Source: Zhenhengia yiwuensis (lineage in GTDB: Bacteria > Bacillota > Clostridia > Lachnospirales > Cellulosilyticaceae). Taken from it: a stretch of 24,000 nucleotides of DNA. This document shows, piece after piece, positions 2,623 through 17,290 of the stretch. The notes beneath the pieces are model-generated. The model saw nothing but the letters and a program-made list of their open reading frames with translations, was not told the origin of the DNA and did not search any database. The stretch is taken from contig NZ_JACRSY010000017.1 in the NCBI RefSeq assembly GCF_014384995.1, positions 62,401-86,400 of the forward strand, read 5' to 3'. The position numbers were made by a program, and so were the translations under genes. Each line of letters starts with the position of its first letter. The first letter of the stretch is position 1.

Positions 2623-3267
2623 TTATGCACCTATAGTTTCTACCCATAGCATTGCTGAAAATAAACTATGGATTAGTTCATAGAATATTTCTGACTCTGC
2701 TTCTTCTTCAAATAAGTCTGCTCTTCTTATTTTAGAAATAACAATCCAATCCTTTTTGTTATAGTTGATAACTTCCTTACCATAATGTTCTATAAATGAT
2801 TGTTGTCTATTTAATTTTTCTTCTTTATTTCCTTTTAATCCTTTATATAATCTACAAATGGCCCCAGCACCAGCCATATTAGATATATTTTTAAGAAGAT
2901 AAATATACTCCCCATCTTTTATTGCTTGAGATAACTCCAATTGAAAACAAAAGTCATGAAACTTAGTTGAACCTAATGTAATATGTGCATCTCGTAATCG
3001 AGTACTATATCCCCATTCGCCTACATTTAAAAATGCATTATATCCTTTTCCATTATAACTCAACACCTCAAAGCCATCTTCATCATTCAACAAATAAATT
3101 TCTTTCATCCTATATGGTTCATGGTGTTCAGTGTCAACTGTCTCACTTACATTACAAGCGAAAAATTTGAATTTGCCTATTTCTAGTTCAATATTTCTAC
3201 CTAGGGGACAAGTTTCTAATATTTCTACAATTCTATTTGCTTCTTTTTGTTCGATAAGCTCTAGCAT
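2623..3267 (-). CDS. Hypothetical protein, 214 aa (cargo gene 3)
   Basis: RBS AAGGAGA before the ATG at 3267. Preceded by hairpin-repeat copy A. No recognisable catalytic motif. Confidence 0.75.
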   Translation of the reverse strand: MLELIEQKEANRIVEILETCPLGRNIELEIGKFKFFACNVSETVDTEHHEPYRMKEIYLLNDEDGFEVLSYNGKGYNAFLNVGEWGYSTRLRDAHITLGSTKFHDFCFQLELSQAIKDGEYIYLLKNISNMAGAGAICRLYKGLKGNKEEKLNRQQSFIEHYGKEVINYNKKDWIVISKIRRADLFEEEAESEIFYELIHSLFSAMLWVETIGA

Positions 3268-3300
3268 ACGTAAATCTCCTTTTTCTATATTCTTTAAGGG

Positions 3301-3366
3301 AAATAACCCAACACAACCACACCGTCTAACTTCATTCTAGTTATCTACGTGGTCATGTCAGGCTTA
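3301..3366 (-). repeat. Cassette-junction hairpin repeat, copy A (most degenerate)
   Basis: AAATAACCCAACACAACCACACCGTCTAACTTCATTCTAGTTATCTACGTGGTCATGTCAGGCTTA aligns nearly base-for-base with 4758-4836 and 6685-6764. Confidence 0.75.
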
Positions 3367-3497
3367 TATCTCTATCCCCTTTAATACTTCTTTCAAGTTA
3401 ATCATTTCACCCTTACTAAGTGTAACACACTTACCCATCTTGGCATGTTCTGGCGCCTATTCATGTATATCGTACTTTAGTTCCTTATCATTCTACG
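3364..3497 (-). pseudogene. Decayed 3' fragment of a PC4/YdbC-like small gene
   Basis: The minus-strand frame reads NDKELKYDIHE*APEHAKMGKCVTLSKGEMINLKEVLKGIEI* with in-frame stops. Roughly 140 nt is homologous to 5048-5185. The KYDIREW..KM.KG..LS pattern recalls bacterial PC4-like (YdbC) proteins. Confidence 0.5.
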
Positions 3498-3505
3498 AAA
3501 TAAGA

Positions 3506-4720
3506 TTAGTTAGTTCTTCTAGCTCTCTTAGCTGCTTTATATCTTTCTTCATCATAGAGATTAAAAATAAGATGATAAACTGTCATTAACTCACCATTTT
3601 CAGGCATTATATGTTTACTTACAAAAACCTCCTGATTGTCTATTTCTGTTCTACTAATATATACTGGTGCAAAATCTTCACTCTTATCTTTTAGAATAGT
3701 AAGTTTTTCCATAATATAATCACTTGCGTTCCTATATGGTTTATTACGATTAATAGAAAGGGTTATCCCAAATTTAAAATTAGGATTTAGATACCCCATA
3801 AGCTGATAATATTGGTCTACGAATTTTTCTATGTACTTATTTTCAATAACACAAAAGTCTTCCAATTGACCTTCATACATCCTATAGATATACAAATCTG
3901 TTTCTCCCAGTTTCTTAGCTGAACGCCCCATTGTAAACTCTCGGGCAATTTGCATATTAAACTTTAGATTTAATGGTCTTATTATCGTGTCATGAAATGT
4001 AGCAGTAACTTGAACCTCATCATATTGTTGGAAATCTACTACTCTCTTTTGGAACTGCTTAAGTGCTTCTAAAATTTCTTCTACTATTCCTTGAGCCTCA
4101 TTAATTGGGTGGTAAGCTTTAAAATGTTGTAGGTATATTTCTCTAATATCACACTCCATTAAATCAAAAAAATCTTCTAGATTATCATAATGGTAAACCA
4201 TTTTAGCCAATAGAGGGTTTTCTATATAAAGAAGTGTCATTCTATTAACTTCATCTGGTAGAAAATCTAAATCTTCAAATATTATTCCTACATATTCATT
4301 GAAATCTTCTATTGTATTAATCACATATGCCTTTGTTTGATCCTCACAAGAATTTGATATATTTATGCTATTCCTCAACTCATCACTTAACGGGAAACAT
4401 ATCAACTCTTCATCTTCATCATGAGCTTCAATCCACCACCTTAAAATATTAAATAGTAAAAATTCATAGTTTGGGTTGATGTAATTTCTAACTACTCTCG
4501 AGTTAATAAGCTCATATAATTCATAAATACTATTTCTACACTTATCAGGTTCTCTTTCATATCTATCTCTTGTAAAAAGGAACGCTATTTCAAAATATGG
4601 ATCATCTTGCATAATGTCAATAAGTACTTCTATAACCCCTCTTATATTATCATTAATAAATTCCATTATCTGGTTACCTATTTTTTTGTCCTCTTCATTC
4701 CACAACTGTACATTAATCAT
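3506..4720 (-). CDS. Hypothetical protein, 404 aa, acidic helical N-terminal region plus C-terminal PD-(D/E)xK-like nuclease signature (cargo gene 2)
   Basis: I prefer the internal ATG at 4720 (MINVQLW..) because it has RBS GAGGAGA. The track ORF start at 4774 lies inside the hairpin repeat. C-terminal motifs are GETDLYIY (D), CVIENKY (ExK) and QLMGY (QxxxY). Confidence 0.8.
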   Translation of the reverse strand: MINVQLWNEEDKKIGNQIMEFINDNIRGVIEVLIDIMQDDPYFEIAFLFTRDRYEREPDKCRNSIYELYELINSRVVRNYINPNYEFLLFNILRWWIEAHDEDEELICFPLSDELRNSINISNSCEDQTKAYVINTIEDFNEYVGIIFEDLDFLPDEVNRMTLLYIENPLLAKMVYHYDNLEDFFDLMECDIREIYLQHFKAYHPINEAQGIVEEILEALKQFQKRVVDFQQYDEVQVTATFHDTIIRPLNLKFNMQIAREFTMGRSAKKLGETDLYIYRMYEGQLEDFCVIENKYIEKFVDQYYQLMGYLNPNFKFGITLSINRNKPYRNASDYIMEKLTILKDKSEDFAPVYISRTEIDNQEVFVSKHIMPENGELMTVYHLIFNLYDEERYKAAKRARRTN

Positions 4721-4757
4721 AAGTTTTATCTCCTCGTAAAAATAATTGGATAAACAT

Positions 4758-4836
4758 AAAAAAGCCCAACACAAGCATACCTTCTAACTTCATTATAGTT
4801 ATCTACGTAGTCATGTTGGGCTTCTTGTTATAAATT
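4758..4836 (-). repeat. Cassette-junction hairpin repeat, copy B
   Basis: Outer stem AAGCCCAACA (4762-4771) / TGTTGGGCTT (4814-4823), followed by TTTTTT on the minus strand. Homology with copy C continues 9 nt into the upstream CDS (stop plus N-L codons). Confidence 0.8.
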
Positions 4837-5019
4837 TTTCAATATAAGTAGCATTATAGATAGTACAGTTATACCACCCCATGTCATTGATAAGCTTATT
4901 ATACCTACCTTTTTAAATCTTTTATATGATACTGAATCTTTTCCTGATGTTTCTGCTTCTAACTTTAAAGACGTTAGATACAAAACAGTTCCTATCAATG
5001 CAAAAACTATTATATTCAT
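4828..5019 (-). CDS. Small membrane protein, 63 aa, two predicted TM helices
   Basis: Strong RBS GAGGAGGA. Two hydrophobic stretches (IIVFALIGTVLYL and GGITVLSIMLLIL) are separated by a charged loop. Confidence 0.65.
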   Translation of the reverse strand: MNIIVFALIGTVLYLTSLKLEAETSGKDSVSYKRFKKVGIISLSMTWGGITVLSIMLLILKNL

Positions 5020-5064
5020 GTAACTATTCCTCCTCTTTCTTCTATTTCTATATCTCTATTCCAT

Positions 5065-5250
5065 TTAAGACATCTTTAATCTCATTACTTCATTTTTACT
5101 AAGTCTAACACCCCTGGCCATCTTGGCATGTTCTGGTACCCATTCGCGTATATCGTACTTAAGCTCTTTATCATTCACACTAAGTGCATGGATCAGAGTT
5201 ATGTCTCTATTTAACATTAGATGCGGATTCTTTATTATCTTTTCGCCCAT
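5065..5250 (-). pseudogene. Truncated PC4/YdbC-like gene remnant (61-codon ORF)
   Basis: ..SVNDKELKYDIREWVPEHAKMARGVRLSKNEVMRLK.. is homologous to fragment 3364-3497. Its 5' part overlaps the end of the 487-aa CDS by 44 nt. Compared with copy A, its C-terminus looks shifted by 1 nt (out-of-frame KDVLNGIEI* against copy A's KEVLKGIEI*). Confidence 0.45.
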
Positions 5251-6670
5251 CTATTAGTACTATTGCATTGTTTTCGTCAATCTTTAAATCATGTAAAATC
5301 TTATTCACACGCGCTAACTCTGAATCAGTAAAATATAATATAACTTTAATTGTTTTAGCTGTTCCTCCATTTGCCTTATTGTAAACATCCAGTTGCTTTG
5401 CTAAGTTTTGTTTCAATTTACTATTACTTGCAAGTTTAAATTCTATTAAGGTTTGATCCTTTTTGCCTTGTGACGCTTTAAAATCAACAGGTCCTCTTCC
5501 GTTATTAACCTCAGCATTCATATCAGAATCAGAACTAAACCATGTAAGCTTGTATAGAATTTGAAAATCATGTTCTCGCTTAATAGGCTGTCCATCTATA
5601 TAAAATATTTTATATCCATCCATATCTTCAATAACCCTTTTAAGATACATCACACGCTCTAGTGCTTCCTCAAAGCTATCCTGTCTTACATCATAAAATG
5701 GCGTTTGAGTTGCCATCATTTCTACAAATATCTTATAGTTATTCACCAGAAGCTCATTACAAAAACTAACCTTTTCATTGCTAATATTTGATGCCATTTC
5801 TTTTTCTCGCTCTTTTTCACGAATATAATAGTCAATAATTTCTGGCAACTGCTGTACTAATCTCTGATATACCTCTTGGCGCTCCTTTTTCTTCATGCCT
5901 TTTTTTAATTCCTGTAACAAATAATTATTGATTTGTCCTCGGAGAGCAATATTATCAATTGACTCTACCAAAAGTTCAATTTTACTATACATGTCATTAC
6001 TATTTATAAATGTATCGTCTCTCGTCAACAGATCCTTTGGGGTTAATATAACATAACTATTTTTAAACTTAGGCAGTGTGTAAATTTCACCCTCCCAAAC
6101 CTCAAAATCGTAATTAAATCTTGACTTACTTACATTAAATTGTCCTAACAAGTTTTTATCAATATGTTTTAACGCAAACTCCTGCGTATATCTCAGCAAA
6201 AATGCTTTAATGAGATTAGTTGTAAAGTCACTGATGTTATCTCGTCCTACTCCTGAACCAATCAGACAAAGTTTTTCTAAATGGCTCTCTTCTGTAATGT
6301 TTTCTTCTCCAAATTTCCCAAATAACGATACTAAATTATTATCTAATGATTTTGCAAATTTCATTCCTAGGCCCGAGCCTTTGTTCCCTACCTCCGAAAA
6401 ACCAAGCCAATTTTGCTCCACCTCTTTAAAGGTATACCATGCCCTTAACAATCCTTCCGTAACTATCCCCTTACTTGATTTATCTTTAAGAAATATTAAA
6501 TACCTTATTATTTCTTTATGTAACTGCTTATATTCATTTTTCTTACTGTTAAAAAGTAAAAACGGATCAATAAAGAGTGGCAAATCTGCAACTAAGGAAA
6601 TATTGAAGGCACCGTACTCTTCAAGTGCTTGCTCTCTGACATTAAAAAAATCACAAAAATAAGTATTCAT
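5207..6670 (-). CDS. Hypothetical protein, 487 aa, with C-terminal PD-(D/E)xK (RecB/Cas4-like) nuclease signature (cargo gene 1)
   Basis: RBS AGGAAGGGA directly after hairpin-repeat copy C. C-terminal motifs are REHDFQILY, GRGPVDFKAS (D), LIEFKLAS (ExK) and QLDVY (QxxxY). I did not recognise the N-terminal ~380 aa. Confidence 0.85.
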   Translation of the reverse strand: MNTYFCDFFNVREQALEEYGAFNISLVADLPLFIDPFLLFNSKKNEYKQLHKEIIRYLIFLKDKSSKGIVTEGLLRAWYTFKEVEQNWLGFSEVGNKGSGLGMKFAKSLDNNLVSLFGKFGEENITEESHLEKLCLIGSGVGRDNISDFTTNLIKAFLLRYTQEFALKHIDKNLLGQFNVSKSRFNYDFEVWEGEIYTLPKFKNSYVILTPKDLLTRDDTFINSNDMYSKIELLVESIDNIALRGQINNYLLQELKKGMKKKERQEVYQRLVQQLPEIIDYYIREKEREKEMASNISNEKVSFCNELLVNNYKIFVEMMATQTPFYDVRQDSFEEALERVMYLKRVIEDMDGYKIFYIDGQPIKREHDFQILYKLTWFSSDSDMNAEVNNGRGPVDFKASQGKKDQTLIEFKLASNSKLKQNLAKQLDVYNKANGGTAKTIKVILYFTDSELARVNKILHDLKIDENNAIVLIDGRKDNKESASNVK

Positions 6671-6684
6671 AAATATCCCTTCCT

Positions 6685-6764
6685 AAAATAAGCCCAGCAC
6701 AACCACACCTTCAAACTTCATTCTAGTTATCTACGTGGTCATGTTGGGCTTCTTGTTATAAATT
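6685..6764 (-). repeat. Cassette-junction hairpin repeat, copy C
   Basis: Outer stem AAGCCCAGCA (6690-6699) / TGTTGGGCTT (6742-6751), extendable to ~17 bp imperfect (..ACCAC/GTGGT..). The repeat overlaps the last 3 codons of the DUF45 gene. Confidence 0.8.
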
Positions 6765-7469
6765 CATATTAATTCCGTTATTTTTTAACCATTCTTTTCG
6801 CACTTCATAGTCTGGCATAATACTTCCTAGTAAATCCCAGAAGGCTTTTGAATGATCTTTATGATACATGTGGCAGAGCTCATGGACAATGATGTAGTCT
6901 AGTGCATGTGCTTTTGCCATGACACAGCGCCAGTTGAATAAGAGCTCATTGTTAATTGTGCAGCTTCCCCAGCGCTTTTTCTGTTCTTTGATTTTCACTG
7001 TCGTAGGCTTTTTGTCAAAGAAGGCTTGGTAATATTTGAGCCGTTCTTCAATTTGTTCTTTGGTTTTCGCTCTGTACCAATCTTCCATAGTTGCTTTTAT
7101 GAGGAGTTCATCTTTTACTGGTACAGTGACATAGAATTTGCCTCTATAAAGCTTTGTGGATGCTTTTCCTACTGTTTCATCGACTACGATTTGCATGGCA
7201 TAGTTACGCCCTAAGTATACAAAGGCTTCACCATTAACGAATTCTCTAGTAATCTTTTGAGCCTGCATATTTCTAAATGTAAACATCTTTTGTATAAGCC
7301 AACTAGCTTTTTGTTTAACCTTCTGTTTAATGACTTCTTCGGTTGTTCCTATAGGTGCTGTTACTACAATTTTACTTGGTGGCTCTATAGCCATTTCCAT
7401 TGTTTTTCTTTCAGAGTAGGTCACTTCAAAAGTTAAGGCTGTTGTCCCATATTGTAGTGTCAATTCCAT
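6756..7469 (-). CDS. DUF45/YgjP-like (M48/WLM-type) zinc metallohydrolase, 237 aa
   Basis: HExxH in IIVHELCHMYHKDH near the C-terminus. The size and the position just downstream of hsdR are typical of YgjP-like proteins linked to Type I R-M operons. Confidence 0.85.
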   Translation of the reverse strand: MELTLQYGTTALTFEVTYSERKTMEMAIEPPSKIVVTAPIGTTEEVIKQKVKQKASWLIQKMFTFRNMQAQKITREFVNGEAFVYLGRNYAMQIVVDETVGKASTKLYRGKFYVTVPVKDELLIKATMEDWYRAKTKEQIEERLKYYQAFFDKKPTTVKIKEQKKRWGSCTINNELLFNWRCVMAKAHALDYIIVHELCHMYHKDHSKAFWDLLGSIMPDYEVRKEWLKNNGINMNL

Positions 7470-7479
7470 CTTATCGCCT

Positions 7480-10400
7480 CTATTCTAATTCTTTGAAGTG
7501 GGTTTTAGCCAGGTTAAGAAGTGGCTGAATCATCTGGTTAATAATCGGTAACTTCTTGATTGTCTTCATATGATTTTTAATAAGCATCATCTTGATTGCT
7601 CTTTCAATGTCATTTGCTTTTGTAGGATTTGTTACCCAATCAATAAGGTAATGATCTTTAACTACTTGTTTGACATCTTTAGCAATACTCTTTGATAACT
7701 CAATGATATCATTGGAGATATAAACTTCTCCCGAATCCTTAACAACCCCTTCTACACTCTCTTCTTCTAGCAAATACTTTTTCACTACTTCAAAGAATGC
7801 AAACTCTTTTTCATCCAGTCCTAGTGTCTCTGAATGTGACTTTGTACCTTCCATGACTTCTTTTTCAATGAATTCTTCTAACTGTTTCTTACGTTTTACC
7901 CAGTCATGTTCTGTATCATTTAAGAGTTTTTGAAGTTTCTCTAGCAAACTGGTATAAAACACAGGGTTATCATCCATTCTTACTGCAATAGCATGTTTTA
8001 CAGCATGTTCCATAGCTGATGCTTGAGATTCATCTGAATGCATGGTATTAATCTTCATTTTAAAGTCATCTTCAAAGAGAGTAATTGGTGCAATCCACTG
8101 TTGCACACCTAAAGACTTCAGATGTTTTTCAATAATCTCCTTAACCTTTTCTCCACAATCACTAATATCTAAGTTCTGTTCTGGTGTATACTTTGCTTTT
8201 GCAGCCACACGAATATAACTTAGCCATTTCACATCATTGAGAATATCTGCCCCTACATGTGCTGGTAGAAGTGCTTCAACTATACCTTGAAAGGTTTTAT
8301 AACCTATTTCAAACTCAGCTCGCTTATCTTCTGGCTCAATCACTTTGATAAGTTCATCTAAGTTGTTAGGATCTACACCTCTAAACATATTCATGACTGC
8401 TTCACGATAAGAAAGCATTTCTTTGTACAGGTCATCTATAGATTGCATTGGTTTTCCAAGTTCTTCTTTGTCAAAGATGGCTAAAGCTTCTTCCAGATAG
8501 TTGGAAATACCGTAGTAATCTACGACATAGCCACATTGCTTGATGATTTTGTTCTTCTCTATGGTCCCATTTTCTAATTGCTTTTGGATTTCTTGCGTAT
8601 TGGTACGGTTTACCCTTGCTATAGCTTGTAGTAAGTTATGTTCTTTGAGTGGTCTATCTAAATACATGACTTGTTCAATAGGTGCATCGAATCCTGTAAG
8701 TAGCATATCTTTTACAATTAAAAAACATAACTTATCTTTGTCTATTGGCTGTTTGAAATGTTTAATGATTTCTTCTTGTTCAGCCTTTGTGGTAAAGTGT
8801 TCCTTCAAGTGTGGAGGATCATTGTTATCTCCTGAGAAGATGACTCTTACTTCTAGCTCTTCACCAATAATGTCTTTCATATGTTTCTTAAGAGCTCTTT
8901 CATAACGTACACAAGCTTCTCTACTAATACAAACTATTTGAGCCTTAAAGCCATTAGGCATAATGTTATCTCTATAGTGTACTAACATATCTTTAGCAAT
9001 ATCTTCGATGCGGACTTCTGCTTCTGCAATAGCTTTGTTGGTTGCATACTTCTGTTTAATGGCTTCTTTTTCTTCATCTGTTCTATCACTGAACATCTGA
9101 TCAAAGAGTTCATCTAAGCTTTTACCTTCTAGTTGAAGGGCTGGCTTTCTACCTTCATATACAATTTTAACTGTTGCCCCATCTTGTACAGCTTCTTCAA
9201 TACCATATTTATCGATGTAGCCACCAAATGTTCTAGGTGTAGACTTATCTTCTTTATCAATAGGTGTTCCTGTAAAACCTACAAATACTGCATTAGGTAG
9301 TGCGACTCTCATATTGCCTGCTGTATCTTTATATTGGCTACGGTGTGCTTCATCTGTTAGAACAATGACATTCGGTGTAGTCGTTAATACCTCATAAGGT
9401 TTCACAAACTTCTTCTTAACCTTCTTGCCATTTTCAATGACTTCACGTTCTTCTGTCTCACTTTCAAACTTCTGAATAGTCGTCATGATAATTTGAGCTT
9501 TAGCAGCTGATAAAAGCTCTTTCATCTTCACAATTTTATCAGCACGAACTGGCTCTGTTATTTTACAGAGGTTCTTGTAGAAGGTTGCAAAGATTTGTTT
9601 ATCGAGGTCAATACGGTCTGTTACAACCACTATGGTTGAATCCATAAGCCCTTCCATACGTCTAAGCTTTCTTGCTAGGAATACCATTGTCAGTGATTTA
9701 CCACTTCCTTGTGTATGCCATACGACCCCACCACGTCCAATAGAGTTTTTCCCTTTTACCATACGGTCTATTGCCTTATTAACAGCTCTAAACTGCTGGT
9801 AGCGACAGACCTTCTTAATAATACGACCATCATCAGGCTCAAAAAGTAGGAAGTTACGCATCAAGTCAATCAGGTTATGCTTTTCTAGCATGCCTTGAAT
9901 AAAGATATTTTGAGGACTGTTCTCTACATCTTCAATATCTTTCTTTTTGAATGGATAAGGATCTTTCCACTCTACATAGTGATTGTATTGTGAGCTAATA
10001 GTCCCGACATAAGCATGGTATTTATTTAAAATACCTGTAAAGAAGTTGGTATAAAATAGATGTGGTGCACCTTCTCCAAGTGCTTCATCTCGAATATTCA
10101 TATAACGGCAAAGCTGTTCATAACCTTGCTTCTTCCCTACACTGACCTTATTTTGTTTTTCTAAGAAAGGTGATTTACACTCTAAGACTACCACGGGTAT
10201 ACCATTAACAAATACCACAATATCCGGGAAGATACTTTTACCACTCAGTGTCTGAACTTCAAATTGACGCACGACTAGGAAATCATTGTTCAGTGGTTCA
10301 TCCCAGTCAATAAAATGTACTGTATGTTTTTTCTTTAAGCCACTACCATCTAAGTCTTGTTCTACTGTATAAGTAAGGTTCACCATGTCATCATAAAGCT

Positions 10401-10671
10401 TCTCATTAATCTCAAGTAGGCTACTACCCAAATGGTCTGCTGTTTGCAGGTAACGGATTGTTCTCTGTAAATTTCCCTGGCTTATCCAAGGGTTTAAACG
10501 TCGTAAAGCCACTTCTAAATGCTTACTAAGTACCACTTCTCTTAAGGATTCACGTTCCCCTTGTTCAGGTCTTAGCTCTTTACCATGAATATAGGTATAT
10601 CCTAGTATCTCTTTCATATAGTCTACAGCTGGTGCTTCAACTAAGGTTTCTTCATTTCCCAAATAGGACAT
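7480..10671 (-). CDS. hsdR: Type I restriction endonuclease subunit R
   Basis: N-terminal nuclease motif PDIVVFVNGIPVVVLECK, helicase Walker A HTQGSGKSLTM, DEAH box VLTDEAHRSQ, and ~1060 aa length. I prefer the start at 10671 (MSYLGNEE) with RBS GGGGGTGA over the upstream ATG at 10689. Confidence 0.95.
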   Translation of the reverse strand: MSYLGNEETLVEAPAVDYMKEILGYTYIHGKELRPEQGERESLREVVLSKHLEVALRRLNPWISQGNLQRTIRYLQTADHLGSSLLEINEKLYDDMVNLTYTVEQDLDGSGLKKKHTVHFIDWDEPLNNDFLVVRQFEVQTLSGKSIFPDIVVFVNGIPVVVLECKSPFLEKQNKVSVGKKQGYEQLCRYMNIRDEALGEGAPHLFYTNFFTGILNKYHAYVGTISSQYNHYVEWKDPYPFKKKDIEDVENSPQNIFIQGMLEKHNLIDLMRNFLLFEPDDGRIIKKVCRYQQFRAVNKAIDRMVKGKNSIGRGGVVWHTQGSGKSLTMVFLARKLRRMEGLMDSTIVVVTDRIDLDKQIFATFYKNLCKITEPVRADKIVKMKELLSAAKAQIIMTTIQKFESETEEREVIENGKKVKKKFVKPYEVLTTTPNVIVLTDEAHRSQYKDTAGNMRVALPNAVFVGFTGTPIDKEDKSTPRTFGGYIDKYGIEEAVQDGATVKIVYEGRKPALQLEGKSLDELFDQMFSDRTDEEKEAIKQKYATNKAIAEAEVRIEDIAKDMLVHYRDNIMPNGFKAQIVCISREACVRYERALKKHMKDIIGEELEVRVIFSGDNNDPPHLKEHFTTKAEQEEIIKHFKQPIDKDKLCFLIVKDMLLTGFDAPIEQVMYLDRPLKEHNLLQAIARVNRTNTQEIQKQLENGTIEKNKIIKQCGYVVDYYGISNYLEEALAIFDKEELGKPMQSIDDLYKEMLSYREAVMNMFRGVDPNNLDELIKVIEPEDKRAEFEIGYKTFQGIVEALLPAHVGADILNDVKWLSYIRVAAKAKYTPEQNLDISDCGEKVKEIIEKHLKSLGVQQWIAPITLFEDDFKMKINTMHSDESQASAMEHAVKHAIAVRMDDNPVFYTSLLEKLQKLLNDTEHDWVKRKKQLEEFIEKEVMEGTKSHSETLGLDEKEFAFFEVVKKYLLEEESVEGVVKDSGEVYISNDIIELSKSIAKDVKQVVKDHYLIDWVTNPTKANDIERAIKMMLIKNHMKTIKKLPIINQMIQPLLNLAKTHFKELE

Positions 10672-10694
10672 TCTTTCACCCCCATTCAAACTGA

Positions 10695-16306: not shown

Positions 16307-17290
16307 TTATTCATGCCTTCTTTCTGCATCCTTTGCACTATAATGAGTATCTTTTCTTTTTTTCTCTCCATTCACTACTTCAATATTACTCCTGCGTTTC
16401 ATCTCTTCTTGCACCTGTTCAAATACCTCAATAGGAATGATAGGTTCATGTGCCTCTTCCATAATAAATTGGTCTTGCTGCCCACGGTTGACTTTTTGTC
16501 TATTATTTGGAAACCCTGTAGTATATGTTTTACCTACCCGTACATTACCCATGTATTTTTCGTTCGTAAGCATGGTTTGAATGGTGCGTTTAGACCATCT
16601 CTCTTTGCCTGTAGGCGAATTGATATTCTTATCAGCTAACTCTTCCATAATCATATCTACACTATACCCACTTAGGTATAACTCAAAGATTTGCCTTACT
16701 ACAATCGCTTGCTCTTCATAAATCATTAGCTCTCCATCTTGGTTTTTTTTATATCCAAAGCATTTGCGTGTATAAAGCTTTGATCTTCCAGATTTAAATC
16801 CACTTTTAAATCCCCATTTGATCGCTTCACTTAATCCCTCACTTTCTGCTTGTGCGAATGCAGCGTGCACTGACATTATGAGCTCTGTTTCAGCATCACT
16901 TGTACTAATATTTTCCTGCTCAAAGCGTACCTCAACACCTAACCATTTTAGTTTAGTAACTGTCTCTAGTAAATCAACAGTATTTCTGCTAAATCGACTA
17001 ATTGACTTGACCAAAATGATATCAAATAGATTCTCATAACTATCAAGCATCATCTTATGAAATCCTGGACGAAAAGTATTCCTTCCGGTATCTTGATCCT
17101 CATAGACTCCATACAAAGTCCACTGAGAGTTGCATTTAACGACTTGCTCCAGACCATACTTCTGGGCTTTTAAACTTTCTTCTTGTATATCGCTTAGTGT
17201 ACTTACACGGCAGTAGATTGCCACTCTTTTATCATTTCTTACTGTGGGTGGCCTAACCTCTACATTACGTCTTCTATTGTTTTCCATCAT
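16307..17290 (-). CDS. Serine recombinase (resolvase catalytic domain plus recombinase domain), 327 aa, lacking the zinc-ribbon/coiled-coil domain of large serine recombinases
   Basis: Catalytic-serine motif VAIYCRVSTLSD, SISRFSRN motif, and recombinase-domain patterns (YTRKCFGYKK, SPTGKERWSKRTIQTMLTNEKYMG, HEPIIPIEVFEQVQ). The ORF stops at ..THYSAKDAERRHE*, about where the Zn-ribbon domain normally starts. Confidence 0.9.
   Translation of the reverse strand: MMENNRRRNVEVRPPTVRNDKRVAIYCRVSTLSDIQEESLKAQKYGLEQVVKCNSQWTLYGVYEDQDTGRNTFRPGFHKMMLDSYENLFDIILVKSISRFSRNTVDLLETVTKLKWLGVEVRFEQENISTSDAETELIMSVHAAFAQAESEGLSEAIKWGFKSGFKSGRSKLYTRKCFGYKKNQDGELMIYEEQAIVVRQIFELYLSGYSVDMIMEELADKNINSPTGKERWSKRTIQTMLTNEKYMGNVRVGKTYTTGFPNNRQKVNRGQQDQFIMEEAHEPIIPIEVFEQVQEEMKRRSNIEVVNGEKKRKDTHYSAKDAERRHE

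Follow-up and report, generated by a model that had tools for sequence, protein, structure and literature searches.

The window (the whole 24-kb stretch of DNA that was analysed) carries, just downstream of hsdM-hsdS-hsdR-ygjP and in the same direction, a gene for a 404-aa protein whose existence is confirmed. The upstream genes encode a type I restriction-modification system together with YgjP, and the 404-aa gene is separated from hsdR by a pair of hairpin repeats and a further block of genes. The features of the gene, its flanks and its product are as follows.

3506..4720, minus strand: coding sequence of the 404-aa protein, ATG at 4720, stop codon at 3506-3508; the exact protein is on record, with ~220 homologues
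4730..4735, minus strand: GAGGAG ribosome-binding site, 9 nt 5′ of the ATG, as read from the sequence
4758..4836, minus strand: upstream hairpin repeat, one of three copies, which sets the gene apart from the block of a gene for a 487-aa protein
3392..3493, minus strand: repeat of the 3′ part of a 61-aa PC4-like ORF (a fragment), between the stop codon of the gene and the downstream hairpin
3300..3378, minus strand: downstream hairpin repeat copy, flanking the gene
4058..4720, minus strand: N-terminal domain (N-domain), residues 1-221, all-helical by prediction, net charge -29, with no family assignment
3509..4057, minus strand: C-terminal alpha/beta domain (C-domain), residues 222-404, with a putative RecB-like PD-(D/E)xK core (~235-324) and an alpha-beta-beta-beta-alpha extension
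4016..4018, minus strand: E235, candidate motif I, at the start of helix alpha-1 (235-254)
3896..3907, minus strand: G272-E-T-D275, candidate motif II (GxxD), at the start of strand beta-2 (272/276-282)
3836..3844, minus strand: E293-N-K295, candidate motif III (ExK), at the end of strand beta-3 (285-296)
3791..3805, minus strand: Q306-L-M-G-Y310, the QxxxY motif, in the helix (297-310) directly after motif III

The mechanically called open reading frame begins at a TTG at 4774 and gives 422 aa, with the same end at 3506. A sequence-only reading of this DNA had moved the start to the ATG at 4720, and the ribosome-binding site, the database protein identical to the 404-aa form (P0001) and the N-termini of the homologues all agree with that correction. 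The full-length homologues (~220) measure ~395-415 aa and share the N-terminus M-I-x-(V/I), and the 18 additional codons of the TTG form fall within the upstream hairpin repeat, in its 3′ arm and T-run.

The hairpin repeats have arms GCCCAAC ... GTTGGGC, which fold into a 15-bp stem around a conserved 26-nt loop, and extrahelical bases are not evident. An integron attC site would have R″/R′ boxes (RYYYAAC ... GTTRRRY) in an imperfect hairpin that closes the 3′ side of a cassette, and an integron would also have an IntI integrase and attI adjoining its array. The 24-kb window contains no tyrosine recombinase ORF, and its sole recombinase is a serine recombinase at 16307-17290. The T-run of the repeat suggests a terminator; the promoter and terminator consensus scan is uninformative on hairpins with such long loops. 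The exact loop pattern does not occur in the GTDB species genomes or the JGI metagenomes, and the only copy found outside the window is a half-copy at the P0003 locus.

The N-terminal part of the protein had been described from the sequence as extremely acidic and helical, and this description holds. Residues 1-221 have a pI of 4.24 and a net charge of -29, the charge over residues 1-270 is -26, and AlphaFold2 (AF2) predicts nothing but helix across residues 13-254. The acidity is kept across the family, with net charges of -17 to -29. At a mean pairwise identity of 58%, compared with 65% for the C-domain, the N-domain is the more variable of the two. The domain behaves as an independent module that also occurs with other C-domains. 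The proposed division of the protein is correct: one half is acidic and helical, the other is nuclease-like, and the boundary is at 221/222. We also note that the N-domain is rather well conserved for an arms-race sensor, a point that counts against the explanation favoured below. Since the inter-domain geometry of the full-length AF2 model is uncertain (pTM 0.50), autoinhibition by the N-domain is purely something that we infer.

The C-domain holds the segments GETDLYIY (residues 272-279), CVIENKY (290-296) and QYYQLMGY (303-310), from which the D, ExK and QxxxY motif set was first read. Conservation was counted in 68 diverse representatives of the C-domain that share 24-60% identity. E235, E261, G265, G272, E293, K295, Q306, Y310, G318 and H383 are invariant (68/68), and D275 and R393 are each present in 67 of the 68. 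The motif set is conserved among homologues down to 24% identity, which is more than a chance pattern would show, and its residues are the best-conserved positions in the 404-aa family. The AF2 model places them on an alpha(235-254), beta, beta(272-282), beta(285-296), alpha(297-310), beta(317-324) framework, so that the motifs would occupy the canonical secondary-structure positions of a predicted PD-(D/E)xK core of alpha-beta-beta-beta-alpha-beta order. RecB-family nucleases have the same motif arrangement and the same placement of QxxxY relative to motif III (PMC2475608).

Structure comparison supports this assignment weakly. Foldseek with the full-length model returned acetyl-CoA carboxylase filament matches, which are spurious long-helix matches; as they swamped the search, the C-domain was modelled alone (pLDDT 83, pTM 0.78). 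Against the PDB, the isolated domain best matches the catalytic domains of two restriction endonucleases, PaqCI (8epx_A, E 3.6e-3, probability 0.97) and then MspJI (4f0p, E 1e-2, probability 0.90). Both matches are weak, with TM-scores of 0.32-0.34, an rmsd of 6-8 Å and 9-11% identity, and the viral structure library gave nothing relevant. Taken with the motifs, a RecB-like PD-(D/E)xK fold is moderately supported for this predicted domain.

Database searches place the protein outside the curated families. It has no significant match in Pfam, NCBIfam, PADLOC or PHROGs, and precomputed Pfam annotation assigns no family to any of the 404-aa family members. Nothing above noise came from sequence and profile searches of the PDB with the 404-aa family profile, a diverse C-domain profile and the profile of the 487-aa neighbour. 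Twenty-four diverse C-domains compared with Pfam at E <= 10 gave scattered chance matches only, and a third round of word-indexed homology searching, now with the C-domain profile as query, brought in no additional annotated relatives. Sub-threshold matches were confined to relatives with other C-domains: P0140 reaches PDDEXK_9 at 1.3e-3, and the divergent “type B” relatives reach HSDR_N at 0.017. In PADLOC-DB v2 the 404-aa protein has no match at E <= 0.1, and P0116, P0140 and P0157 have none at E <= 0.01. The model of PDC-S54, a single-gene phage-defence candidate of PADLOC, does match the motif core of the C-domain in the distant family members P0233 (2e-7) and P0255 (4e-4); however, the match spans only ~60 residues, and neither the window protein nor any close relative matches the model even at E 0.1. 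Relevant literature was not found on DUF8370, PDC-M36, PDC-S54, or Roco proteins in connection with anti-phage activity.

The RecB, AddB, Cas4 and HsdR nuclease domains carry a four-motif signature that recurs in the C-domain with its order unchanged and with each motif on the corresponding predicted secondary-structure element; the HsdR of the window itself reads D..ECK..QLCRY. In contrast to RecB-family nucleases, the 404-aa protein shows no significant sequence or profile similarity to that family and has no helicase partner, and its sequence lacks the Fe-S cysteine cluster found in Cas4 and AddB. The C-domain further differs in its additional alpha-beta-beta-beta-alpha extension, which brings the conserved H383 and R393, and in being joined to an acidic helical domain of no known type. 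PaqCI and MspJI join their nuclease to DNA-recognition domains, whereas the partner domain in the 404-aa protein is strongly acidic.

The 487-aa neighbour, a DUF8370+DUF8371 protein, is cargo in the same hairpin-delimited block, and a D..ExK..QxxxY segment ends both proteins. Its residues are D396, E410-x-K412 and Q426-xxx-Y430. The order is identical in the two proteins, as the sequence-only reading had stated; the spacings, which it had called similar, are so but are unequal, the D-E distance being 18 residues against 14 in the neighbour and the K-Q distance 11 against 14. The proteins were also said to be otherwise unrelated, and BLASTP (E > 1) and hhalign (probability 0.3% for whole proteins and 0.7% for the C-termini) indeed show no detectable homology. 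The best local profile alignment has D, ExK and QxxxY in register, although it is not significant. The idea of a common nuclease in both neighbours is not supported in the form proposed; the C-terminal cores belong to different families whose profile-profile alignment is non-significant. The neighbour is itself covered by existing models, over its N-terminus by PADLOC PDC-M36A and over its full length by phrog_30194. It belongs to a very large family, DUF8370/8371, with at least 6,811 matches in many phyla, whereas the 404-aa family is small (~220-300 members) and found mostly in Clostridia.

Exchange of modules is nevertheless seen among the relatives. The natural chimera P0140 combines an N-domain that is 63% identical to that of the window protein (E 5e-107) with a DUF8371 core that is 41% identical to that of the neighbour (E 2e-11). 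In ~20 representatives, the same N-domain carries a divergent homologous nuclease-like C-domain (hhalign probability 96%, E 2.4e-9), and the K of ExK is no longer present in the divergent type B relatives. Conversely, the C-domain of the window protein terminates the LRR-Roc-COR-A-COR-B proteins P0150, P0158, P0166, P0178 and L046, the SEFIR/TIR-LRR-Roc-COR protein P0160, which at its N-terminus resembles the PADLOC defence model bSEFIR closely enough to match it, the pentapeptide-repeat protein P0173 and the TPR protein P0255. Both modules are independently mobile. Modular swapping, suggested earlier from the two neighbouring genes, thus occurs in nature, but not as a shared nuclease beneath a swapped sensor. 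The direction differs: the acidic N-domain is constant, and three different nuclease-like C-domains, one of them of DUF8371 type, are exchanged on it.

Effector displacement occurs in NTP-dependent conflict systems (PMC7159879), and its occurrence here on a retained partner domain is a likeness to those systems. The terminal position of the C-domain on LRR-Roc-COR, SEFIR/TIR-LRR-Roc-COR, pentapeptide and TPR proteins is a likeness to NTPase-switch immune proteins. Such proteins with terminal nuclease effectors include the Avs/STAND proteins. Unlike Roco and STAND receptors, the 404-aa protein has no Roc, COR, NTPase or repeat sensor and has only the C-domain in common with the Roco proteins, and the known relatives of its 220-residue acidic helical N-domain are all inside the 404-aa family.

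The genomic contexts of the homologues are variable and rich in defence or mobile-element genes, a qualitative association. They include a PLD-helicase-DUF3427 protein with NUDIX; a YobI ATPase with helicases; Vsr, Dcm and a type II NmeDI-like enzyme; a type IIG enzyme with a specificity subunit; Fic; DUF6037 with PLD; an rRNA methyltransferase; and, where a 60-kb viral contig ends, an OLD-like ATPase-nuclease. Homologues are also often situated directly after one to three large serine recombinases. No conserved partner gene was found across the contexts compared, and an obligate multi-gene system is rejected because the neighbours differ from context to context. At the closest other locus, 86% nucleotide homology is limited to window positions 4740-3498, that is, to the gene and its ribosome-binding site. 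The distribution is patchy, with 22 loci in 185,579 species genomes, mostly in Lachnospiraceae and other Clostridia, and the P0116 variant is present on at least 1,000 contigs.

We lean, with moderate confidence, towards the 404-aa protein being a single-gene candidate for conflict, defence or abortive infection, in which a sensor is joined to a nuclease; that the gene is a new, putative anti-phage gene is plausible. As we infer them, the catalytic activity, the part that the N-domain plays in regulation, the trigger and the defence phenotype would fit together as follows. The C-terminal 180 residues would form a RecB-like PD-(D/E)xK metal-dependent nuclease with E235, GxxD275, E293-x-K295 and Q306xxxY310 as its motifs. 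The N-terminal 220 residues would act as an acidic helical regulator, most likely protein-binding or DNA-mimicking and autoinhibitory, that probably holds the nuclease off until a cue derived from an invader is met. The released nuclease would then cut the DNA of the invader, or that of the cell itself in abortive infection. The gene with its ribosome-binding site may travel as a discrete unit into defence islands and the cargo regions of integrated mobile elements.

The same mobility could serve the element rather than the host. If the protein were a toxic nuclease inhibited in cis, with the N-domain as a fused antitoxin, it might stabilise its element or attack competitors. The recurrent position right after the integrase modules of integrated elements, the occurrence on a prophage-like contig, the discrete mobile gene unit and the patchy distribution all accord with such selfish addiction or inter-element competition. 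Positions after integrases are, however, also typical hotspots of defence cargo, and for this reason the two roles are not clearly separable. The fusion of the C-domain to LRR-Roc-COR and SEFIR/TIR sensors suggests triggered immunity over plasmid-style addiction, and we consider the selfish role unlikely. A more elaborate proposal is given similarly little credence. It takes the C-domain as an unrecognised RecB-like effector family common to these 400-aa proteins and LRR-Roc-COR (LRRK2-like Roco) proteins, and the acidic N-domain as a DNA-mimic autoinhibitor or decoy that phage DNA-binding or anti-restriction proteins would remove, so that the protein would guard adjacent restriction systems.

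A narrower form of guarding concerns the type I restriction system of the window itself. By a logic analogous to that of PrrC and PARIS, the N-domain would be a DNA-mimic decoy or a sensor for anti-restriction proteins of phages, and the nuclease would fire as a guard or back-up when HsdRMS is attacked. The location of the gene and its orientation relative to the hsd genes suit this idea, as do the net charge of -29 and conserved acidity of the N-domain and the homologues that adjoin the NmeDI-like, Dcm and Vsr genes or the type IIG enzyme with its specificity subunit. Yet a type I system is absent from the surroundings of most homologues, which have serine recombinases, Fic, PLD-helicase, YobI ATPase or rRNA methyltransferase genes instead. 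In the window the two hairpins and the intervening gene block stand before hsdR, and nothing points to a link, physical or regulatory. We regard this guard function as rather improbable.

It is also quite doubtful that the C-domain is not a nuclease at all, but a binding or scaffold domain or another class of enzyme in which D, ExK and QxxxY coincide by chance. Such a reading would draw on the lack of any significant sequence or profile match to nuclease families, on the low TM-scores and on the missing K of ExK in the type B relatives. Against it, five charged or polar residues, placed exactly where a four-motif nuclease signature has them, vary hardly or not at all in sequences as diverse as those counted above, the predicted topology fits, and P0140 substitutes another D..ExK..QxxxY domain for the C-domain. 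Very unlikely, finally, is an enzyme that serves the element in recombination, repair or restriction and whose N-domain reads DNA, for example an exonuclease of RecB/Cas4/YqaJ type or a type IV, modification-dependent endonuclease: the RecB-like motif set and best fold matches that are restriction enzymes, including the modification-dependent MspJI, point that way, but an N-domain of pI 4.2 that carries a net charge of -29 is ill suited to recognising DNA, no recombinase partner (RecT, Erf or SSB) is conserved alongside, the Cas4/AddB type of cysteine cluster is missing, and the same domain is a terminal module on Roco-type switch proteins.

If the preferred reading of a sensor joined to a nuclease is confirmed, a compact single-gene nuclease system that is common in gut Lachnospiraceae would join the catalogue of bacterial immunity. 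The analysis also delineates two domain families for which curated databases have no entry. The chimera with the DUF8371 core points to effector exchange on a fixed partner domain, which would be usable both for engineering and for testing these proteins. The nuclease-like domain, present at the ends of Roco proteins and in one case together with SEFIR/TIR, also offers a handle on the old question of what the bacterial, LRRK2-like Roco proteins do. Should the reading of an effector shared with Roco proteins be true, bacterial Roco GTPases would be NLR-like immune receptors that deploy a nuclease.

The minus-strand open reading frame (ORF) ending at position 3506 of the window is a real gene. 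A mechanical ORF call starts it at a TTG at 4774 (422 aa); counted from an in-frame ATG at 4720, the product has 404 aa. The sequence-only reading had moved the start to 4720, and rightly so, since the 404-aa sequence is an exact match to a called protein on record (P0001), practically all ~220 full-length homologues have lengths of 395-415 aa and an M-I-x-(V/I) start at the aligned position, a GAGGAG ribosome-binding site (4735-4730, minus strand) lies 9 nt 5' of the ATG, and the 18 additional codons of the TTG form fall inside the 3' arm and T-run of a hairpin repeat. The gene belongs to a minus-strand run of hsdM, hsdS, hsdR, a YgjP-like metallopeptidase gene and three blocks, between which lie three copies of a ~79-nt hairpin repeat:

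16307-17290, minus strand: 327-aa ORF, serine-recombinase-like by its sequence, at the upstream end of the run
6756-7469, minus strand: YgjP-like metallopeptidase gene, directly after hsdR
6686-6764: hairpin repeat
5207-6670, minus strand: 487-aa gene; block 1, with a 61-aa PC4-like ORF and a 63-aa membrane ORF
4758-4836: hairpin repeat
3506-4720, minus strand: 404-aa gene; block 2, with a fragment of the PC4-like ORF
3300-3378: hairpin repeat
2623-3267, minus strand: 214-aa orphan ORF; block 3, after the last hairpin

The 214-aa ORF has no match in Pfam, NCBIfam, PADLOC or PHROGs, and is unrelated to the DUF6037 214-aa proteins found 3' of 404-aa homologues in other genomes. The 63-aa membrane ORF (4828-5019) occurs in the first block only. 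We also note a 129-nt direct repeat of ~80% identity (3365-3493 and 5049-5176); the latter copy is the 3' part of the 61-aa ORF (5065-5250), which has a weak PC4-like (ssDNA-binding) match, and the former is a stop-interrupted fragment of the same ORF.

The 404-aa protein consists of an acidic N-domain (residues 1-221; pI 4.24, net charge -29) and a neutral C-domain (residues 222-404). The full-length AlphaFold2 model (mean pLDDT 81.7) contains only helices from 13 to 254 and is alpha/beta thereafter, in agreement with the acidic helical N-terminal part that had been described from the sequence; its pTM of 0.50 leaves the inter-domain geometry uncertain. The three nuclease-type motifs proposed earlier are present: GETDLYIY (residues 272-279), CVIENKY (290-296) and QYYQLMGY (303-310). 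Modelled alone (pLDDT 83, pTM 0.78), the C-domain comprises the following elements:

235-254: first helix, with E235 at its start
257-263: strand
272-282: second strand, with GxxD275 at its start
285-296: third strand, with E293-x-K295 at its end
297-310: helix right after the third strand, carrying Q306xxxY310
317-324: strand, followed by an alpha-beta-beta-beta-alpha extension

In an alignment of 68 representative C-domains, with identities to the window C-domain as low as 24%, E235, E261, G265, G272, E293, K295, Q306, Y310, G318 and H383 are invariant; D275, L307, R393 and A397 are conserved in 67 of the 68, and G309 and N324 in 66. A Foldseek search of the PDB with the isolated C-domain ranks two restriction enzymes first, PaqCI (E 3.6e-3, probability 0.97) and MspJI (E 1e-2, probability 0.90), with TM-scores of only 0.32-0.34. 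By its motifs the C-domain is like the RecB-family PD-(D/E)xK nucleases, for which a QxxxY motif has likewise been described in the helix after motif III (PMC2475608), and it probably adopts that fold.

The family is compact, made up of ~400-aa proteins without annotation; a word-indexed search returned 222 matches and an exhaustive HMMER search 296 representative clusters. Nothing significant was found for the protein or the family profile in Pfam, NCBIfam, PADLOC, PHROGs or the PDB. The distribution is rare and patchy: a set of 185,579 species genomes contained 22 loci, almost exclusively in Lachnospiraceae and other Clostridia. The exhaustive search shows the N-domain and C-domain to be separate evolutionary modules. 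The C-domain (residues ~205-404) occurs without the N-domain as the C-terminus of other architectures: LRR-Roc-COR-A-COR-B proteins, i.e. bacterial Roco proteins (P0150, P0158, P0166, P0178; Lachnospiraceae genome locus L046, 3256-6744), a 1304-aa protein with SEFIR/TIR and then LRR-Roc-COR (P0160), whose N-terminal SEFIR/TIR domain matches the PADLOC bSEFIR model, a pentapeptide-repeat protein (P0173), a TPR protein (P0255) and several shorter proteins. Conversely, ~20 representatives join the N-domain to a divergent "type B" C-domain, which is still homologous to the C-domain (hhalign probability 96%, E 2.4e-9) and keeps GExD and the motif III glutamate, with loss of the lysine. Mean pairwise identity is 58% for the N-domain versus 65% for the C-domain, making the former somewhat more variable, and its acidity is conserved across the family (-17 to -29).

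The 487-aa neighbour carries D396, E410-x-K412 and Q426xxxY430. Motif order is the same in the two proteins and the spacing similar, as the sequence-only reading had pointed out (D to E, 18 in the 404-aa protein versus 14; K to Q, 11 versus 14), and no other similarity was detected (BLASTP E > 1, profile-profile probability 0.3%). The further proposal of a nuclease common to both is not supported, as the best local hhalign alignment of the cores sets D, ExK and QxxxY in register but with a probability of 0.7%, i.e. without detectable homology. Modular exchange, the other part of that proposal, is directly documented by P0140, a clean chimera: its residues 6-228 share 63% identity with the window N-domain (E 5e-107), and its C-terminus, recorded as Pfam DUF8371, shares 41% identity over 66 residues with the neighbour's core (E 2e-11). 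From this architecture the two cores appear to be functionally interchangeable at the C-terminal position of the N-domain. The neighbour's family (DUF8370+DUF8371) is very large, with at least 6,811 matches in many phyla; the five motif residues are invariant among 23 aligned members. In the neighbour itself, the first 230 residues hit the PADLOC candidate PDC-M36A (1.2e-19) and the protein as a whole hits phrog_30194 (2.3e-31). HsdR of the window (7480-10689) has its own RecB-type motif set, D..ECK..QLCRY, so three gene products of this stretch share the same signature.

The hairpin repeat copies are 76-91% identical, with a 15-bp stem containing two G.U pairs on the sense strand, a conserved 26-nt loop and then a T-run; RNA folding z-scores are -4 to -5.3. 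The arms, GCCCAACA and TGTTGGGC, fit the integron attC R''/R' consensus RYYYAAC / GTTRRRY. Rfam gave no match, no integron integrase is present in the window, and the exact loop pattern was not found in GTDB genomes or JGI metagenomes; a half-copy lies in the P0003 homologue locus (L049, 3248-3297). Possible roles for the repeat are those of an attC-like recombination site, of a terminator/insulator, or of both. Each copy also contains a -10-like hexamer 16 nt after a weak -35-like C(C/T)(A/G)ACA (minus strand; 4787-4815 and 3334-3361), TATAAT in the 4758-4836 copy and TAGAAT in the other two; the repeat may thus drive transcription of the downstream block as well. Across the region, the total of promoter-like sites is not above that of shuffled sequence. 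Logan contigs identical to window 3245-6743 (L009-L013), which are independent assemblies of this sequence, end at or within the hairpin repeats, consistent with a multi-copy repeat in that genome.

The closest foreign locus resembles the window at the nucleotide level (86%) only over 4740-3498, i.e. the gene and its ribosome-binding site, which indicates that the gene travels as a discrete unit. Elsewhere, one to three large serine recombinases very often directly precede the homologues (L023-L025, L028, L032-L034, L050, L051). P0116, a very common gut variant, is 3' of a PLD-helicase-DUF3427 protein and a NUDIX protein. Other homologues follow a DUF87 ATPase, helicase and YobI ATPase and precede a Xer-like recombinase; adjoin Vsr, Dcm and an NmeDI-like enzyme; follow an rRNA/tRNA U5-methyltransferase; neighbour a type IIG enzyme within an integrase/TnpV element; adjoin Fic, or DUF6037 plus PLD; or stand at the end of a 60-kb viral contig, with an OLD-like ATPase-nuclease coming next. 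Since a serine-recombinase-like ORF also heads the run in the window, the whole stretch between ~2.6 and 17.3 kb may have come in as the cargo of an integrated element.

The gene product is most economically read as a single-polypeptide conflict or defence protein, in which the conserved acidic helical N-domain would restrain a putative RecB-like nuclease effector until an invader-derived cue releases it. We lean slightly towards this reading: the C-domain behaves like an effector on Roco, SEFIR/TIR, pentapeptide and TPR proteins, nuclease modules are swapped while the N-domain stays, the N-domain is somewhat more variable with its acidity kept, and the gene is found in defence-island and integrase-adjacent positions. 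A net charge of -29 speaks against a DNA-recognising N-domain and is compatible with protein sensing or DNA mimicry. A guard of the adjacent restriction system would suit the hsd genes of the window; no conserved partner gene stands beside family members at other loci. An addiction or inter-element competition module would share the recombinase-adjacent positions, and the occurrence of the C-domain on putative receptors points rather to defence. A recombination or restriction enzyme of the element would agree with the PaqCI and MspJI matches, and the N-domain charge speaks against it. That the C-domain is a non-nuclease domain would fit the negative results: it belongs to no curated family tested, even a diverse C-domain profile matches neither a Pfam nuclease family nor a solved nuclease, and the viral structure library gives no match (sub-threshold PDDEXK_9 and HSDR_N matches occur only in relatives with alternative C-domains). 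Motifs and predicted topology nevertheless fit the nuclease fold, and the fold search is weakly positive.

The 404-aa protein is accordingly put forward as a candidate sensor-plus-nuclease, single-gene defence system. The nearest catalogued entity is the PADLOC candidate PDC-S54, whose model has matches in distant C-domains alone, confined to their motif core. The limited set of literature searched contained no description of the family and no Roco protein in phage defence. The deployment of the C-domain resembles that of the terminal effectors of NTPase-switch immune proteins, and the principle of effector displacement has been described (PMC7159879). The link to bacterial Roco proteins is the most valuable by-product of the analysis: the nuclease-like C-domain that they share with this family, together with the SEFIR/TIR domain of P0160, suggests that bacterial LRRK2-like proteins act as immune receptors.
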